Shown: positions 1 through 6,593 of the stretch, in pieces | Layout of the letters: the number at the start of each line of letters is the position of its first letter | Numbering within the stretch: position 1 is the first letter of the stretch | IMG/VR virus record: IMGVR_UViG_2541047119_000019 | Coordinates: 1 to 6,593 of that record | DNA from: a virus | Lineage: Duplodnaviria > Heunggongvirae > Uroviricota > Caudoviricetes | DNA: 6,593 nt | Direction: 5' to 3' (one strand) | Program-made: the position numbers and the translations under genes | Notes under the pieces: generated by a model | What the model was told of the DNA's origin: nothing | Databases searched by the model: none | The model's input: the letters and a program-made list of their open reading frames with translations, nothing else

Positions 1-299
1 GTTACCTCACAGCTGATACTGAGGGTTTCCGGGTCCTCTGCGAGCGATTCTGGCTGTTCGGCAGCTGCATCGAGAGTCACAGGAAGTAGCTGGGGGCTCT
101 CTGAAGAAGGTAATAGCAGCTTTCCCTCGCGCCATTGTTGTCGCCATTTGAACAACAGATTGGCGTTAATGCCATTTTCAAGAGCAAGTTTTGAGATGGA
201 TATCCCGGGTTCACAGGAGGCAGCAACGAGCTGCTGTTTAAATTCGGGAGGATAATTAGGGCAGCCTTTTCGCCTGCCGGGAGTCACATTTTTCTGCAT
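1..299 (-). CDS. IS-type transposase OrfA/TnpA, helix-turn-helix (HTH_Tnp_1 / PF01527-like), N-terminal ~99 aa; 3' end outside window
   Basis: Manual minus-strand translation from ATG (plus 299-297) gives MQKNVTPGRRKGCPNYPPEFKQQLVAASCEPGISISKLALENGINANLLFKWRQQWREGKLLLPSSESPQLLPVTLDAAAEQPESLAEDPETLSISCEV with no stop to position 1. The PEFK...GxSxxxLAxxxGI...LxxWRxQ pattern is typical of IS3/IS66 OrfA HTH proteins. It is absent from the ORF track because it has no stop inside the window. Confidence 0.7.
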   Translation of the reverse strand, partial: MQKNVTPGRRKGCPNYPPEFKQQLVAASCEPGISISKLALENGINANLLFKWRQQWREGKLLLPSSESPQLLPVTLDAAAEQPESLAEDPETLSISCEV

Positions 300-391
300 A
301 TCTGATACTTTGGTTCCCACTACTTATTTGGTGGGCACCACTTTGTCTAATTCGTCAGATTCTGACCAGACGGTTCAGGCTGTACGCTTAC
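1..391 (-). mobile_element. Terminal part of an insertion sequence (IS66-family-like), partial; body continues beyond window start
   Basis: The minus strand of 385-391 reads GTAAGCG, the motif I recall as the start of IS66-family terminal inverted repeats. It lies 92 bp upstream of the minus-strand transposase start at 299. The other end and any target duplication are outside the window, so the boundary is inferred. Confidence 0.5.
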
Positions 392-411
392 TTTTTAAGG
401 AAGGTAAATAC

Positions 412-972
412 ATGCTGATTGGCTATATACGCGTATCAACAAATGACCAGAACACCGGTTTACAAAGAAATGCGCTGGAATGTGCAGGATGTGAGCAGAT
501 TTTTGAAGACAAAATGAGTGGTAAAACGACACAGCGGCCGGGACTGAAGCGGGCACTGAAGAAACTAAAACCCGGTGACACGCTGATGGTCTGGAAACTG
601 GACAGGCTGGGGCGCAGTATGCGCCACCTTGTTGCGCTGACAGATGAATTACAGCAACAGGGGATAAATTTTCGTAGTCTTACTGACAACATTGATACGT
701 CAACCCCCATGGGGCGCTTCTTTTTTCACATAATGGGTGCGCTGGCAGAAATGGAGCGTGAATTAATTGTCGAACGGACACGGGCTGGTCTTGCAGCTGC
801 CCGTGAAAGGGGACGAACCGGCGGCAGACCCCGCCGTCTCACGCAGGAACAATACGAGCAGGTCGGGCGTTTACTGGCCGGGGGTGTCAGTCGAAGACAG
901 GTGGCACTTATTTTTGATATCGGTCTTTCAACCCTTTATCGTTATTATCCTGCGAGCGTTTCGGAAAAATAA
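412..972 (+). CDS. Serine-recombinase DNA invertase, Gin/Pin/Cin/Hin (Din) family
   Basis: From ATG 412 the product begins MLIGYIRVSTNDQNTGLQRNALECAGCEQIFEDK..., with the catalytic Ser in RVSTNDQ, the WKLDRLGRS and GINFRSLTD...MGRFFFH...ALAEMERELIVERT blocks, and a C-terminal HTH (GVSRRQVALIFDIGLSTLYRY). This is near-colinear with my recollection of Gin/Pin. SD AAGGAAGG at 397-404 sits 7 nt before the ATG. The track start at TTG 310 is rejected. Confidence 0.93.
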   Translation: MLIGYIRVSTNDQNTGLQRNALECAGCEQIFEDKMSGKTTQRPGLKRALKKLKPGDTLMVWKLDRLGRSMRHLVALTDELQQQGINFRSLTDNIDTSTPMGRFFFHIMGALAEMERELIVERTRAGLAAARERGRTGGRPRRLTQEQYEQVGRLLAGGVSRRQVALIFDIGLSTLYRYYPASVSEK

Positions 973-1071
973 GACGCTCTCTTTGTTGGGCCTTTACTGA
1001 ATTAACGCAAAATGGCGTTTATCGGTCTGTGGATATGATAATTCAGTTTATTCAGGAACAGGCTGATTATT

Positions 1072-3111
1072 ATGACGTCCAAATGGGTTCAACTATCATC
1101 AATGCCCGGAAACTTTACTGTTAAAGTTTCCGGTGGTACAGCGGCATTTCTTGAGGCTCCCTTTCCTCCGGCCGAAACAAAAGGAGGAATGACATTTGCT
1201 GACTGTCTCATCAGTTTTAATACACGGGATTGCCTGTGGGTAAGGCCAGTATCCGGTGATCCGAGTGTGGAAATTACCGGAGCGGGTATTGGTGCGGTCA
1301 TTCCGTTAAGTGCTGATGTTGCCGGTACTGCTGAACCGTCAGACTGGGATAATGCTGAAACACATACCCGTCCGTCAGGAAATGAAACTGCTTCCAGCTC
1401 CCCTTCCTGGTATTACGTGGTGGTTCTTGCTGGTCAGTCAAACGGTATGGCTTACGGTGAAGGTCTGCCACTGCCGGAGACATATGACCGCCCCGAACCG
1501 CGTATTATGCAGTTAGCCCGTCGCAGTACAGTCACGCCGGGAGGTAAAGCCTGTCAGTATAACGACATCATTCTGGCCGACCACTGTCTGCATGATGTGC
1601 AGGATATGAGTGGAAAAAATCACCCGAAAGCGGATGTGGCTAAAGGGCAATATGGCACCGTGGGTCAGGGGCTTCACATTGCCAAAAAACTGCTGCCGTT
1701 TATTCCGGCAGATGCGGGGATTCTGCTGGTTCCCTGCTGCCGTGGTGGTTCTGCATTCACGGCGGGTGCTGACGGCACGTACAGTGACAGCACGGGTGCT
1801 TCAGAGGACTCAGCCCGCTGGGGTGTGGATAAGCCGCTGTATAAGGACTTAATCAGCCGGACAAAAGCGGCACTGGCGAAGAACCCGAAAAACCGCCTGC
1901 TTGCTGTGGTGTGGATGCAGGGCGAGTTTGATATTGATGCGAAGCCGACGGAGCATTCTGCGCTGTTTCTGGCGATGGTGGAAAAATTCCGCGCAGACCT
2001 GGCTGAACAGGCGGAACAGTGTACCGGTGGCAGTGCTGCTGGCGTTCCGTGGATTTGTGGCGATACCACGTATTTCTGGAAACAGAAAAATGAACCAGCA
2101 TACCAGGCAATCTATGGCGGCTACAAAAACAAAACAGATAAAAACATTCATTTCGTTCCATTAATGACAGATGAAAATGGCGTGAATGTACCCACCAACA
2201 ATCCGGCAGAAGACCCGGATATTGAATCCATTGGTTATTACGGCTCAACGTGGCGTAACAGTGCCGCTACCTGGACATCTGCGGACCGGGCCAGCCATTT
2301 CAGTGCCTGGGCGCGCCGGGGTATTATTTCTGACCGTCTGGCCACGGCTGTTCTGACTCATGCAGGGCGAACCACAGTAAAAGCCGATGTTCCATCTTCT
2401 GAAACTGAAGCACCAGTGCCGTCACCTTCAGAAACTGAAGCAGTAACCACAACACTGCTGTCTTACCGTGTCAGTGAGTCAGAAGGAAATCTGAAAGCCC
2501 AGGGCTGGGAGCCGGCTGGCGGTAAAGCTGAAATTATCAGTGATGCAGGAGGCACAGGTGGTAAGGCAATGAAACTGACCAAGGAAACAGGTAAATCATC
2601 CTGGTATCTGGATCATGATGCCGGTACTGGTGCTGAACTGCTGAAAAATGGTGGTTTAATCAGTTGTCGTTTTAAAGTACCTGGCGACCTGGTGGCAAAC
2701 CAGTATGTCATGGCGCTTTACTGGCCGGTTTCCTCTCTGCCGCAGGGTGTCACCCTGACAGGGGATGCAGGGAATAATCTGCTGGCATCGTTCTACATCC
2801 AGACAGACGCAAAAGACCTGAATGTGATGTACCACAATGCAAAAGTGGCAACAAATAACCAGAAACTGGGAACCTTTGGTGCATTTGATAATGAATGGCA
2901 TACGCTGGCCTTCCGTTTTGCAGGAAATAACAGCCTTCAGGTTATTCCGGTTATTGATGGTCAGGATGGTGCCGCGTTTACCCTGACGCAGTCACCAGTA
3001 GGAACTTTCCCGGTGGACAAACTCCGCGTAACGGATATCACCAAAAATGCAACTTACCCGGTGCTGATTGACAGCATTGTGGTGGAAGTGAAAAAAGCGG
3101 TAACAGAATAA
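1072..3111 (+). CDS. SASA/SGNH-family carbohydrate esterase (sialate O-acetylesterase-like, resembling prophage NanS-p), with Pro/Ser/Thr/Glu linker and C-terminal putative carbohydrate-binding domain
   Basis: 679-aa ORF. It carries the YYVVVLAGQSNGMAYGEG block (GQSN catalytic-serine motif of sialate O-acetylesterase / DUF303-type SGNH hydrolases), then CRGGS and VVWMQGEFD blocks. A repetitive SSETEAPVPSPSETEA linker separates a ~220-aa C-terminal domain. Start choice (ATG 1072 versus internal ATG 1102) is uncertain. Confidence 0.78.
   Translation: MTSKWVQLSSMPGNFTVKVSGGTAAFLEAPFPPAETKGGMTFADCLISFNTRDCLWVRPVSGDPSVEITGAGIGAVIPLSADVAGTAEPSDWDNAETHTRPSGNETASSSPSWYYVVVLAGQSNGMAYGEGLPLPETYDRPEPRIMQLARRSTVTPGGKACQYNDIILADHCLHDVQDMSGKNHPKADVAKGQYGTVGQGLHIAKKLLPFIPADAGILLVPCCRGGSAFTAGADGTYSDSTGASEDSARWGVDKPLYKDLISRTKAALAKNPKNRLLAVVWMQGEFDIDAKPTEHSALFLAMVEKFRADLAEQAEQCTGGSAAGVPWICGDTTYFWKQKNEPAYQAIYGGYKNKTDKNIHFVPLMTDENGVNVPTNNPAEDPDIESIGYYGSTWRNSAATWTSADRASHFSAWARRGIISDRLATAVLTHAGRTTVKADVPSSETEAPVPSPSETEAVTTTLLSYRVSESEGNLKAQGWEPAGGKAEIISDAGGTGGKAMKLTKETGKSSWYLDHDAGTGAELLKNGGLISCRFKVPGDLVANQYVMALYWPVSSLPQGVTLTGDAGNNLLASFYIQTDAKDLNVMYHNAKVATNNQKLGTFGAFDNEWHTLAFRFAGNNSLQVIPVIDGQDGAAFTLTQSPVGTFPVDKLRVTDITKNATYPVLIDSIVVEVKKAVTE
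2398..2442 (+). repeat. Short in-frame tandem-like direct repeat (TCTGAAACTGAAGCA / TCAGAAACTGAAGCA, 30-bp period) encoding the SETEA linker
   Basis: Two 15-bp copies at 2398-2412 and 2428-2442, 14/15 identical, read directly from the sequence inside the esterase ORF. Confidence 0.85.
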
Positions 3112-3117
3112 AAAAAT

Positions 3118-3144
3118 CCCGCCGGTCATGATATGGCTGGCGGG
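3118..3144. terminator. GC-rich hairpin just after the esterase stop; possible terminator, orientation ambiguous
   Basis: CCCGCCGG (3118-3125), 11-nt loop, CTGGCGGG (3137-3144): 8 bp with one G-U pair. An A6 run precedes it, which would be a U-tract on the minus strand. No U-tract follows on the plus strand. Confidence 0.35.
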
Positions 3145-3257
3145 AGCTACCTAACCCATAAAGGAAAATAAAAATACTCCCGAAGGAGTGGTTATCAGTC
3201 GCTTCGATGTTTTTACCCGATAACGAATTATGTAGTCAATATCAAAGGTAAGGTTAT

Positions 3258-3440
3258 ATGACATTCGTTCATACAATGCTGCTTTATTTCTGCGCTGTGG
3301 TCAGTGCGTTATATCTGGTGAGCGGCGGTTATAAGGTCATCAGAAATTATATTCGCCGTAAAATTGATGATGCGGCAGCTGAAAAACTCAGTAAAACAGC
3401 ACAGGCACCGTCATCCCCAAACGACCCGACCCCGCTCTGA
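3258..3440 (+). CDS. Small hypothetical membrane protein (60 aa, one predicted N-terminal TM helix followed by a basic segment)
   Basis: ATG 3258 is preceded by AAGGTAAGG (3245-3253). The hydrophobic stretch TMLLYFCAVVSALYLVSGGY is followed by KVIRNYIRRK. No family recognised. Confidence 0.55.
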   Translation: MTFVHTMLLYFCAVVSALYLVSGGYKVIRNYIRRKIDDAAAEKLSKTAQAPSSPNDPTPL

Positions 3441-3475
3441 TAACGGGGCAATATACCTGCAAAAGGAGAATATTC

Positions 3476-3721
3476 ATGCCAGAGATTAAAGGCACGGTTA
3501 CTGAAGAGCTTGTCAAACAGGCACTTTATTCTGAAGAAGTGAACCGCGTGCTGAAGGCGCAGGTTCGCAAGGATTTTGAGGCACAAATCGACGCATATGT
3601 TGATGAAGTGCTGGCCCGAATGGTTGGCCGTTCTCCGGCTGAAAACAGCACGGAAAATGATCCTCAACCCGTAGAGCAACCAGAGCCGGTTCAGCCCGGA
3701 ACTGACGGTACTATGATGTAA
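3476..3721 (+). CDS. Small hypothetical acidic protein (81 aa), predicted helical N-terminal half and Pro/Glu-rich tail
   Basis: ATG 3476 is preceded by a strong SD AAGGAG (3463-3468, 7-nt spacing). It lies 35 bp after the previous small ORF, suggesting a two-gene unit. No family recognised. Confidence 0.6.
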   Translation: MPEIKGTVTEELVKQALYSEEVNRVLKAQVRKDFEAQIDAYVDEVLARMVGRSPAENSTENDPQPVEQPEPVQPGTDGTMM

Positions 3722-3730
3722 CAATACCGA

Positions 3731-3750
3731 CCGGCAGGTTTCCCTGCCGG
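3731..3750 (+). terminator. Candidate intrinsic terminator after the small-ORF pair
   Basis: Perfect 8-bp stem CCGGCAGG / CCTGCCGG with 4-nt loop TTTC, followed by the T-rich GTGAGTTTGTTAATG. Confidence 0.5.
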
Positions 3751-4076
3751 GTGAGTTTGTTAATGCACGTTTTGTGTATTTTCCCTCCTGGGAGAACAGG
3801 CAGGACATATCAGCATCCTGAAACAGGAAGCATTTTTGGGTTTGTATGTCTTGCCATTTTGAGATCGAGAACGGCGATAGATGAGCTGTAAGGGAGTCTT
3901 ACAGGCAGGGCAAACAGGCTCTTTCATCCATGATAAAGATCTCCTTTTTATGCATCTCTGCTTTACAGGAGACTGGGGAATATCATAGGATACGCCACGA
4001 GCTCGAAGTAAAGCATTGATGCAAAATTGTCTAAATCGGCCCAGAATAGTTCGCGCTATCTGGGTCGCTCTTTATG

Positions 4077-4112
4077 TATGTAGTATCCCATTGATTTGAA
4101 ACATACTACATA
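4077..4112. promoter_or_regulatory. Perfect 10-bp inverted repeat (TATGTAGTAT-N16-ATACTACATA); candidate operator or structured element
   Basis: Arms at 4077-4086 and 4103-4112 are exact reverse complements, in the AT-rich non-coding region upstream of com-mom. Confidence 0.3.
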
Positions 4113-4147
4113 TACGCGCGATCCTACCTTCACTATATAAAAAGTCA

Positions 4148-4165
4148 ATAAAATGATCATTTTAT
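4148..4165. promoter_or_regulatory. 18-bp perfect palindrome centred on a Dam site (ATAAAATGATCATTTTAT); candidate methylation-sensitive regulator binding site
   Basis: Read directly; a second GATC lies 11 bp away at 4166-4169 and another at 4120-4123. Confidence 0.35.
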
Positions 4166-4272
4166 GATCGTTTTCACCACCTAACTCTTCGTTTTCTTTA
4201 AGTAAATAATCACCTACCTGAATCATTGTTGATGACTTTTCAATCTATTTGTTGTATCAATTAAACAAATCG

Positions 4273-4297
4273 AATCGATCGTTTTTGTCGATCGATT
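4273..4297. promoter_or_regulatory. Inverted repeat AATCGATCG-N7-CGATCGATT with a GATC in each arm, 44 bp upstream of the com start; candidate operator / Dam-sensitive site
   Basis: Arms at 4273-4281 and 4289-4297 are exact reverse complements, with GATC at 4277-4280 and 4290-4293. Confidence 0.35.
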
Positions 4298-4340
4298 GCA
4301 TGAGAAAGGCATCAACAACAAAGCAGGAGGTTATGCGGCC

Positions 4341-4541
4341 ATGTATCGAAACATACGGTGCCGACACTGCAATAAGCTACTGGCACGGGCCAGTTTCAGT
4401 TATCTGGAAGTAAAATGTCCGCGCTGTAAAACCCTCAATCAAATCACATCTCCGAGCGCCACAGAGCACCCCACATACACAAGGAAATCCTGTCGTGGGG
4501 AACAGAAAGCAAGTCACATCCCGAATCATCAGCACGCCTGA
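4341..4541 (+). CDS. com: Com-like zinc-finger translational activator (phage Mu Com homologue)
   Basis: From ATG 4341 (SD AGGAGG 4324-4329) the 66-aa product is [34 protein letters not shown]...EHPT.... The two CxxC pairs and the IRC..CNKLL...CPRCK...EHPT pattern match my recollection of Mu Com. Its 3' end overlaps the next ORF out of frame, as com overlaps mom in Mu. The track start at TTG 4296 is rejected. Confidence 0.82.
4469..4500 (+). promoter_or_regulatory. mRNA stem-loop sequestering the predicted mom SD and GUG start (translation-inhibition-structure-like)
   Basis: CCCCAC (4469-4474) pairs with GTGGGG (4495-4500); the GTG is the predicted mom start. The 20-nt loop contains AAGGA (4481-4485). 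This is analogous to the Mu mom TIS that Com binding relieves. Confidence 0.5.
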
Positions 4542-5232
4542 ACTTATTCGCTATAACGACAATATCGTTGGTTATGGCTCCCGTGAGTTGCGGGTTGAGA
4601 CAATAAGTTGCTGGCTGGCCAGACTGGTCATCGTCAATAAACATTACAGCCACCGTTTCGTAAATAACTCCTACCTTCATCTGGGCATATTTTCAGAACG
4701 GGAACTTGTTGGCGTAATGCAATGGGGTTACGCCCTTAACCCAAACAGTGGTGCACGCGTCGTAACGGGTACGCAGAACCGAGAATATATGGAGCTTAAC
4801 CGGCTATGGCTGCATGACTGTATGCCGAGAAACTCCGAATCAAGGGCAATCAGTTACGCGCTCAAGCTAATCAGGCAGCTTTATCCGCAGGTACAGTGGG
4901 TTCAGTCGTTTGCAGATGAGCGTTGTGGCTGTCTTGGTGTCGTGTATCAGGCAAGCAATTTTGATTATGTAGGCAGCCATGAATCAATATTCTATGAACT
5001 TGATGGCGAGTGGTATCACGAGATTTGCAGGAATGCCATTAAACGAGGCGGACAACGAGGTGAACATCTGAGGGCTAATATTGACAGAGCCAATGTTCAT
5101 AAGTTCCGACAGTTTCGTTACATCCGGTTTCTGAACAAGAGGGCCAAAAAACGCCTCAACACAAAGCTATTCAAAGTCCAGCCTTACCCAAAACCACAAA
5201 CAGTTAAAACTGGTTTGAAAGAGAGTGAATGA
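4495..5232 (+). CDS. mom: Mom-like DNA modification protein (phage Mu Mom homologue; adenine N6-methylcarbamoyl/acetamido modification, anti-restriction)
   Basis: 245-aa ORF immediately downstream of and overlapping the com-like gene (4495-4541) in another frame. GTG 4495 is the first start codon after the frame opens at 4414, with AAGGA 9 nt upstream. Size is close to Mu Mom. The call rests mainly on synteny with the clearly Com-like gene; the Mom sequence was not matched from memory. Confidence 0.75.
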
Positions 5233-5263
5233 GCGCTTAAAAACTCATTCTAAAACTCAAAAG

Positions 5264-5308
5264 AAAAGCGCCGATTTAGTATCAAATAAGTTGCGTATCG
5301 GCGTTTTT
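5264..5308. terminator. A-tract / hairpin / T-tract element after mom; candidate bidirectional terminator or IS-end structure
   Basis: AAAAGCGCCGAT (5264-5275) pairs with ATCGGCGTTTTT (5297-5308), one G-U pair, around a long 21-nt loop. A second 7-bp hairpin GAATGAG/CTCATTC (5227-5250) spans the mom stop. Confidence 0.4.
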
Positions 5309-5411
5309 CAGCAGTATCAAATGAAATGCAAATCGGTATCAAAAAAATCGCCGCGCTATACTACAGGCATTTAAATTCCAGTTAAGACCAGGTGGTCAAC
5401 AGGAGCGTGAA

Positions 5412-6560
5412 ATGAGGCGCTTCGCAGGCGCATGTCGTTTCGTTTTCAATCGTGCTCTGGCGCTTCAGAATGAGAATCATGAGGCCGGTAATAAATACAT
5501 CCCTTACGGGAAAATGGCTTCCTGGCTGGTTGAGTGGAAAAACGCCACTGAAACGCAATGGCTTAAAGATGCCCCGTCACAGCCATTGCAACAGTCACTG
5601 AAAGAGCTTGAGCGGGCTTACAAAAACTTCTTCCGGAAGCGGGCTGCTTTTCCCCGATTCAAAAAGCGGGGACAGAATGATGCATTCCGCTACCCGCAGG
5701 GCGTTAAGCTCGATCAGGAAAACAGCCGTATTTTTCTGCCGAAACTTGGCTGGATGCGCTACCGGAACAGCCGTCAGGTCACGGGTGTTGTGAAAAATGT
5801 CACTGTCAGCCAGTCCTGCGGTAAGTGGTACATCAGTATTCAGACAGAAAGTGAAGTATCAACTCCGGTTCACCCTTCAGCATCAATGGTCGGACTGGAT
5901 GCTGGCGTGGCTAAACTCGCCACGCTGTCAGATGGCACAGTCTTTGGACCTGTAAACAGTTTTCAGAAAAACCAGAAGACGCTGGCGAGACTTCAGCGAC
6001 AGTTAAGCCGCAAGGTCAAATTCAGCAACAACTGGCAGAAGCAGAAACGCAAAATACAGCGACTGCATTCCTGTATCGCAAATATCCGCAGGGACTACCT
6101 TCACAAAGTCACAACGACCGTCAGCAAAAACCACGCAATGATAGTCATTGAGGATTTGAAGGTCAGCAACATGTCAAAGTCAGCAGCGGGTACGGTCAGC
6201 CAGCCGGGGCGCAATGTCCGGGCAAAATCAGGTTTAAACCGTTCGATACTGGATCAGGGCTGGTATGAAATGCGCCGCCAGCTTGAGTACAAGCAGCTCT
6301 GGCGTGGCGGTCAGGTGCTTGCTGTTCCGCCAGCGTACACAAGCCAGCGTTGCGCGTGCTGTGGTCATACAGCGAAAGAAAATCGCCTGTCACAAAGTAA
6401 ATTCAGATGCCAGGCATGTGGATATACAGCGAACGCTGATGTAAATGGCGCTCGTAACATTTTAGCGGCGGGGCACGCCGTTCTTGCCTGTGGGGAGATG
6501 GTGCAGTCAGGCCGCCCGTTGAAGCAGGAACCCACCGAAATGATTCAGGCGACAGCCTGA
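5412..6560 (+). CDS. tnpB: TnpB (OrfB) of an IS200/IS605-family element; RuvC-like RNA-guided endonuclease fold with zinc ribbon
   Basis: 382-aa ORF with SD AGGAG (5401-5405). RuvC-like motifs are present: VGLDAGV (D), IVIEDLKV (E) and [10 protein letters not shown] (D), plus zinc ribbon CACCGH...CQACGY. The in-frame upstream translation (ILQAFKFQLRPGGQQERE, 5358-5411) looks like the conserved TnpB N-terminus but has no ATG/GTG/TTG after the stop at 5322-5324. Confidence 0.9.
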
Positions 6561-6593
6561 ACGTAGCAGGGATCCTCGTCCTTCAGGGCTTGG

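Follow-up and report, generated by a model that had tools for sequence, protein, structure and literature searches.

Translation of the mom gene of phage Mu requires the protein Com (PMC3378877). The RNA element involved, made up of a Com operator and a translation inhibition structure (TIS), was described by Wulczyn & Kahmann in 1991 and by Hattman et al. in 1991 and has been summarised more recently (PMC6483171). The motif that Com recognises, CC(N)2-3GAG, was worked out by means of SELEX and SHAPE. It lies in the loop of a hairpin that adjoins the TIS, and it is the stem of the TIS that contains the GUG start codon of mom (PMC6483171). Binding of RNA by Com, and the dependence of mom translation on it, are known only for Mu and for the Com protein of H. 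sputorum (PMC6483171, PMC3378877). The Com operator has been compared to HIV TAR-Tat, the likeness being CC(N)2-3GAG in a hexaloop, a C-G closing pair and a short stem (PMC6483171). TAR-Tat, however, acts on transcription elongation in a eukaryotic virus and is of unrelated origin, so that this is a resemblance only. Protein-controlled hairpins at the ribosome binding site (RBS) occur in other phages as well, namely the coat protein operators of MS2 and Q-beta and the RegA targets of T4, and there, as with Com, a small phage protein acts on a hairpin at or beside the RBS. The MS2 and Q-beta coat proteins and RegA are repressors that bind the start-containing structure itself, whereas Com activates from beside an inhibitory structure, and we know of no sequence or protein homology between any of these systems and Com.

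The Mu-like prophage Sp18 of E. coli O157 strain Sakai encodes homologues of Mom and of the Mom regulators (PMC3299994) and was predicted to be intact in a published analysis (PMC2669165). The DNA examined here, which we call the window, is the whole stretch of 6,593 nucleotides at positions 1 to 6,593 of the IMG/VR virus record IMGVR_UViG_2541047119_000019; Sp18 serves as a comparison prophage only and the window is not equated with it. We consider it very probable that the segment 4456-4500 of the window is the orthologue of the com-mom translational control element of Mu, and this estimate covers our best explanation as a whole, that is, orthology together with a block of mom translation that is relieved by Com.

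The com-mom region of the prophage

The window includes the right-hand terminus of a Mu-like prophage of the E. coli O157:H7 type, and its features are listed in Table 1. From 3900 to 5360 it is 100% identical to the Mu-like prophage in E. coli O157:H7 strain ECP19-2498. This identity ends at about 5360, where ECP19-2498 continues into flgG and the window into the tnpB/insQ gene, and these differing flanks show that the same prophage lies at different chromosomal sites, which is expected of a transposable phage. In Mu, com comes directly after gin, whereas in the window three genes (1072-3721) intervene, and these are the genes for the SASA (sialate O-acetylesterase-like)/DUF6645 protein, DUF1378 and DUF826 that lie between the invertase and com. 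Upstream of com, 5 of the 13 GATC sites of the window are clustered at 4120-4297, and AATCGATCG-N9-GATCGATT (4273-4297) can be aligned to the Dam-site region that precedes com in Mu. About 36 nt of the Mu sequence between the GATC sites and com, a promoter-proximal segment, are missing in the window, however, and because of this the promoter layout of the window, as read from the sequence, probably differs from that of Mu Pmom.

Table 1. Positions of the features in the window and the basis of each assignment
Feature	Position	Strand	Basis
Gin/Cin-type invertase, recombinase domain	~412 to 972		Pfam
679-aa protein with SASA-esterase and DUF6645 domains	1072-3111		Pfam
Two small DUF genes (DUF1378, DUF826)	3258-3440, 3476-3721		Pfam
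com, 66-aa zinc-ribbon translational activator	4341-4541 (ATG 4341, TGA 4539-4541)	+	ORF list, Pfam, RefSeq
Putative Com operator hairpin, GCGC-CACAGA-GCAC	4456-4469	+	motif, spacing, covariation
TIS, CCCCAC (4469-4474) with GUGGGG (4495-4500), 20-nt loop	4469-4500	+	folding, conservation, model match
Predicted inner helix in the TIS loop, ACA(A)GG with CCUGU, pairing the GG of the SD	4479-4493	+	MFE and centroid folds
mom Shine-Dalgarno (SD), AAGGA, 9 nt 5' of the GUG	4481-4485	+	read from the sequence; partly paired
mom, 245 aa, GUG start 4495-4497	4495-5232	+	first start after in-frame stop, Pfam, RefSeq
IS200/IS605-type tnpB/insQ gene	5412-6560		

The protein encoded by com matches Pfam PF10122 (Zn_ribbon_Com, E 1.9e-12) and is 47% identical to Mu Com. 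The gene is intact, the zinc-ribbon cysteines are kept in a C-x2-C...C-P-x-C motif, AGGAGG (4325-4330) is found 10 nt 5' of the ATG, and RefSeq annotates the com coding sequence identically in the identical O157:H7 sequence. Mom matches Pfam PF25680 (E 2.6e-77), and compared to Mu the identity is about 79% at the protein level, counted from residue 5, and 71% at the nucleotide level. The two genes are on the same strand and overlap by 47 nt in a Mu-like arrangement. The GUG at 4495 is the first possible start of mom after an in-frame stop at 4411-4413, it is the start given by RefSeq in the identical O157:H7 sequence, and the GUG of Mu is at the homologous place. The hairpin element described below supports GUG 4495 as the correct start of a gene that RefSeq names only 'hypothetical protein'. 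As for Mu Mom itself, RefSeq starts it at an ATG (L001:1108-1110) that is 30 nt 5' of the GUG of the literature (L001:1138-1140); this upstream ATG is missing in the window and in several other lineages, which favours the GUG over the ATG as the start of Mu Mom.

Predicted folding of the mom start region and of the putative Com operator

The sequence from 4469 to 4500 reads CCCCAC AUACACAAGGAAAUCCUGUC GUGGGG, and its two arms form a perfect 6-bp stem with five G-C pairs in which the mom GUG sits in the 3' arm. This stem was present when 4440-4520 (-14.3 kcal/mol) or 4465-4504 (-12.6 kcal/mol) was folded, both in the minimum free energy (MFE) structure and in the centroid. When seven contexts of 40 to 550 nt were folded, all six pairs had a probability of 0.98-1.00, and the predicted unpaired probability of the mom start codon was at most 0.01. 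The TIS alone has a predicted energy of -11.5 kcal/mol. An inner helix is predicted in the loop, with the pairs A4479-U4493, C4480-G4492, A4481-U4491, G4483-C4490 and G4484-C4489; it contributes about 3 kcal/mol (-12.6 versus -9.6 kcal/mol) and leaves the SD residues G4483 and G4484 with a predicted unpaired probability of 0.02-0.03. In the relatives L027 and L028 the same GG of the SD is paired with CC elsewhere in the loop. Since the GUG is in the 3' arm and the GG of the SD is in the inner helix, both the start codon and the SD core are sequestered in the predicted fold, and by these folding models the hairpin at 4469-4500 is confirmed as real.

A preliminary description of the sequence had placed a GC-rich 6-bp stem, CCCCAC/GTGGGG, wholly inside com with the GTG start of mom in its 3' arm, had named the two genes as com and mom, and had suggested that 4440-4520 be folded. 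The pairing, its position inside com, the start, which is shared with RefSeq, and the two gene identities all agree with what we found, and the stem appears in the suggested fold and in the other contexts with no pair below 0.98. That description had also put the SD inside the loop, and this is so as far as the position of AAGGA is concerned, but the SD is not open there because its two G residues are predicted to be paired in the inner helix.

Energy turned out to be a poor guide to whether such a hairpin is more than chance. Against dinucleotide shuffles the 81-nt segment had a folding z-score of -0.98, the 40-nt segment one of -2.18 and the hairpin by itself one of -2.07, and the Mu TIS, which is experimentally established, has -8.7 kcal/mol and a z-score of -2.57 and is no more significant than that of the window; folding z-scores, being this weak, were therefore rejected as deciding evidence. 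In the window there are 80 perfect 6-bp stems per strand with loops of 3-20 nt, and 17 per strand, about 12 of them distinct, have at least five G-C pairs. Occlusion of the RBS (-14 to +3) was also measured for 66 distinct loci with 100 shuffles each. In the window clade the mean unpaired probability was 0.38 versus about 0.61 in the shuffles, which corresponds to z-scores of about -1.5 to -1.9, and 1-9 of the 100 shuffles were equally occluded. This metric was dropped as a test because it does not detect this class of element, Mu itself having a z-score of -0.2. As the validated Mu TIS does no better by z-score or by occlusion, thermodynamics cannot settle the question either way, and the above-chance status of the hairpin rests on its position and conservation and not on its energy.

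Just 5' of the TIS, the sequence CCACAGAG (4459-4466) has the Com recognition motif in the form CC(N)3GAG, and it is followed by CAC and then by the TIS stem. In the putative operator hairpin formed around it the closing pair is C4459-G4466, the other pairs are G4458-C4467 and G4456-C4469, and C4457·A4468 is mismatched; alone, this hairpin is predicted to have only -1.7 kcal/mol. The C·A mismatch is unique to the window clade, every other aligned lineage having four standard pairs. In the close relative L021 (1454-1513) there is a U in place of C4457, which is a synonymous change in a Ser codon and gives the full 4-bp operator stem, and L021 scores 34 bits versus 28 for the window in the leave-clade-out covariance model described below. 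An operator that is mismatched and, by prediction, barely stable could weaken the binding of Com. When every copy of CC(N)2-3GAG in 89 distinct loci was counted, without preselection on the stem, a stem of at least 4 bp accompanied 68 of the 147 copies at com-mom junctions compared to 29 of the 517 copies elsewhere. An operator list preselected for stems of at least 4 bp had been dropped as circular, and this count of all motif copies replaced it.

Likeness to the Mu element and conservation among relatives

In Mu the com frame reads GCC UGC GAG CAU CCC ACG GAG AAA CAU UGU GGG AAA, and in the window it reads GCC ACA GAG CAC CCC ACA UAC ACA AGG AAA UCC UGU CGU GGG GAA. The stem core CCCAC/GUGGG is identical in the two, the mom GUG is in the 3' arm of both, and the TIS is located at the same com codons, its 5' arm encoding E-H-P-T and its 3' arm Cys/Arg-Gly. 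The spacing in CCACAGAG-CAC-stem of the window is the same as in CCUGCGAG-CAU-CCCAC of Mu, a C-G pair can close the operator loop in both, and in both a single nucleotide belongs to the operator as well as to the TIS. Pairing of the first SD G residues is another common feature, by G·U in Mu and by G-C in the window. What differs is that the TIS loop is 20 nt in the window and 11 nt in Mu, the window having three extra com codons and forming the extra inner helix with this longer loop, that the SD is AAGGA in the window and GGAG in Mu, that the outer TIS pair is C-G in the window and U-A in Mu, and that the operator stem is GCGC/GCAC with the C·A mismatch in the window and AUGC/GCAU in Mu. The window TIS is also predicted to be about 3 kcal/mol more stable than the Mu TIS (-11.5 versus -8.7 kcal/mol).

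For a covariance model, R1, we used Mu and 12 other lineages and left the window clade out. It matched the window once, at 4448-4507 on the + strand, with 28 bits and an E value of 5.4e-8. The runner-up, CCCAC...GUGGGAA at 308-382 on the - strand near the start of the invertase, had 8.1 bits and an E value of 0.33 and is most likely a chance match. Among 60 related loci the model gave 20 matches (E up to 1), all of them on the + strand and upstream of or at the mom match, and it gave no match in those of the 60 that have mom and in which no com was found. In a search of Rfam the only match in 4200-4650 was to IS102 RNA, with 17.9 bits compared to the gathering score of 46 and an E value of 0.99, and the Mu element appears to be without an Rfam family. 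The preliminary description had held that the hairpin mirrors the TIS of Mu mom, that the regulatory logic is conserved although the sequences differ, and that covariation should be looked for across homologous loci. The shared com codons, the common stem core and the match of a model made without the window clade uphold the likeness to Mu, and the covariation given below bears it out. The conservation also stands, but it is the loop and the SD that differ; since the stem core is identical to that of Mu, it points to orthology and not to a shared logic carried by unlike sequences.

With Mom as the query, 80 viral and 52 genomic loci were retrieved, and 19 distinct enteric-type sequences from these align cleanly. 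In these 19 the TIS is paired in 100% of cells, with loops of 11, 14, 17 or 20 nt. The outer pair of the TIS covaries, being U-A in 10, C-G in 8 and U-G in 1, and the pair adjacent to the loop has one U-G. The other four pairs are invariant and so are uninformative on structure, and the mom start codon and the overlap of two reading frames place further constraints on the 3' arm. The covariation of the outer pair splits largely by two clades and may represent only one or two evolutionary events. In the operator all four pairs covary, with changes on both sides. None of 500 shuffles reached the observed pairing or covariation score, pairing fell from 97.7% to 23-62% when the partners were slid, and RNAalifold independently predicted the same two hairpins, that is, the operator and the TIS. 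With this comparative set, it seems, the operator hairpin and the outer pair of the TIS are supported by covariation for the first time. The Pro codon in the 5' arm (4470-4472) is CCC in 19 of 19 sequences, the four-fold degenerate base 4472 always being C, and CCC is a rare Pro codon in E. coli. At the Pro codon of the zinc-finger CPRC, in contrast, the same 19 sequences have CCG in 9, CCT in 5, CCA in 3 and CCC in 2. As the 5'-arm Pro codon is always CCC while all four codons are used in the zinc finger, the codon usage points to selection at the RNA level.

Beyond the enteric-type sequences, the SD and/or the start are likewise covered by a stem in the distant com-mom loci L033, L071, L072 and L075, although its sequence is quite different there, and the same is true of the Pseudomonas- and Desulfovibrio-type loci. 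Four close relatives of mom without com (L084, L087, L089 and L104) have neither a GUG-GGx start nor the hairpin. In the distant com-mom lineages of Pseudomonas, Desulfovibrio and Rhodospirillaceae (L107, L110, L114, L116, L119 and L122-L128) there are often two tandem CC(N)2-3GAG hairpins about 20-80 nt 5' of mom. In the MFE folds of these loci GCCAUGG of the second operator pairs with CCAUGGC at the mom start, around a CCUC/GAGG hairpin that hides the SD. This long helix between operator and mom start is paired in 82% of cells in the distant lineages and its covariation was matched by 30-81 of 500 shuffles. In the Yersinia/Serratia-type mom loci (L073-L082, L093-L097 and L118) no com zinc-finger ORF was found. 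These have a different conserved region about 110 nt 5' of mom with a strong hairpin (GCCCCGGA...UCCGGGGC), and in their fold the GGAG SD and the UUG/AUG start are paired. This upstream region may represent a different control of mom.

Proposed control of mom: mechanism, alternatives and meaning

The structure, the homology to Mu, the conservation with covariation, the motif and both genes were observed at the locus in the window, and the steps by which they would act are modelled on Mu. The hairpin at 4469-4500 would lock the mom GUG in the 6-bp G-C-rich stem and the GG of the SD in the inner helix, and with these locked there would be no 30S initiation on mom. Com would be translated from the same mRNA, on which its gene precedes and overlaps mom, and, by analogy with Mu, would bind CC(N)3GAG on the small hairpin at 4456-4469 that adjoins the TIS. 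Binding would destabilise the TIS and expose the start signals of mom, as it does in Mu, and translation of mom would in this way depend on Com. The toxic Mom, a DNA-modifying enzyme, would then be made only late in lytic growth, after Com has accumulated.

Because the hairpin falls entirely within the com frame, and the end of com is 44 nt beyond the mom start, it has to be melted by each ribosome that passes along com. It could be argued from this that the hairpin is opened in cis by these ribosomes, that is, by coupling, or that it is a constant damper, and that Com binding is minor or absent. That the operator of the window clade is barely stable and weakened by the C·A mismatch and that the TIS of the window is about 3 kcal/mol stronger than that of Mu are both in line with this argument. 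We nevertheless regard it as unlikely, because Mu has the same com/mom overlap and yet Com is essential there for the translation of mom (PMC3378877; PMC6483171). The window has also kept the CC(N)3GAG motif, the C-G closing pair and the spacing to the TIS, its com is intact with the zinc-ribbon cysteines, and the covariation of the operator across the family indicates selection for a hairpin that binds a protein.

It is very unlikely, in our estimate, that the complementarity has no function at the RNA level and is a by-product of overlapping coding or of chance, in which case H-P-T and C/R-G of com, the mom start and Gly2 of mom would simply happen to give complementary arms. The modest energy z-scores, the dozen or so comparable G-C-rich 6-bp stems per strand in 6.6 kb and the invariance of four of the six pairs in a sequence that is doubly coding could all be read in this manner. 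Against it, the third base of the 5'-arm Pro codon is C throughout while the other Pro codon varies, the outer pair changes on both sides in ways that are synonymous for His of com and Gly of mom, and indels of 3, 6 and 9 nt in the loop have left the complementarity of the arms intact. Moreover, the stems of L033, L071, L072 and L075 cover the SD or the start in spite of their different sequence, closely related mom genes without com are also without the element, and the C-terminal tail of Com that the element encodes has no ordered structure and is not needed for binding RNA (PMC6483171). A hairpin that is stable, rich in G-C and located in an operon could also be mainly an element for RNase processing or stability, or a transcriptional pause or terminator inside com, and to this we give hardly any credence. 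The start codon is in the 3' arm in every enteric-type relative, which argues for control of initiation, and Rfam has no matching family. The terminator reading was rejected since the stem is followed by AACAGAAAG and not by a U-tract and since the terminator scan found nothing on the + strand at the hairpin, the only terminator-like call nearby being on the minus strand at 4466-4450.

The preferred reading, a TIS that is relieved by Com, leads to the question of the nucleotide that the two hairpins have in common. In the window C4469 can pair with G4456 in the operator and with G4500 in the TIS, and in 19 of 19 sequences the shared position can pair with both of its partners, the combinations being G/C/G, A/U/A, G/U/A and A/U/G. 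In Mu both registers are at -10.5 kcal/mol and thus isoenergetic; for the window, -13.1 kcal/mol is predicted for the TIS register and -10.1 kcal/mol for the operator register, and the lead of about 3 kcal/mol for the TIS results from the C4457·A4468 mismatch in the operator. According to these energies, the TIS would lose only about 3 kcal/mol if C4469 went over to the operator, and this would not open it. In the Pseudomonas- and Desulfovibrio-type loci, as judged by eye from the alignment, the predicted anti-SD hairpin seems to have two nucleotides in common with the operator's 3' arm. In L071 the predicted fold overlaps this arm by all four nucleotides, and in several loci pairing is possible between the mom start and the loop of the operator. 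It is conceivable, though we hold it to be rather doubtful, that operator and TIS together make up a genuine RNA switch with two states, built on shared nucleotides and conserved well beyond Mu. If this were so, Com would act by capturing the operator conformer, and the O157 clade, with its mismatched operator and its TIS reinforced by a 9-nt insertion, would be set to a firmer off state and require more Com.

The hairpin is a new example of a known control device and leaves the understanding of the mechanism unchanged; only what the comparison says about the operator and the shared nucleotide goes beyond the published descriptions cited here. The relatives provide natural variants for studying how Com opens the TIS, with loops of 11-20 nt, a mismatched operator and, in the distant lineages, tandem operators. 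For the prophage itself, what the finding means is that the translational hold of Mu on a toxic anti-restriction enzyme has probably been kept, its stem nearly base for base, in a prophage of E. coli O157:H7.
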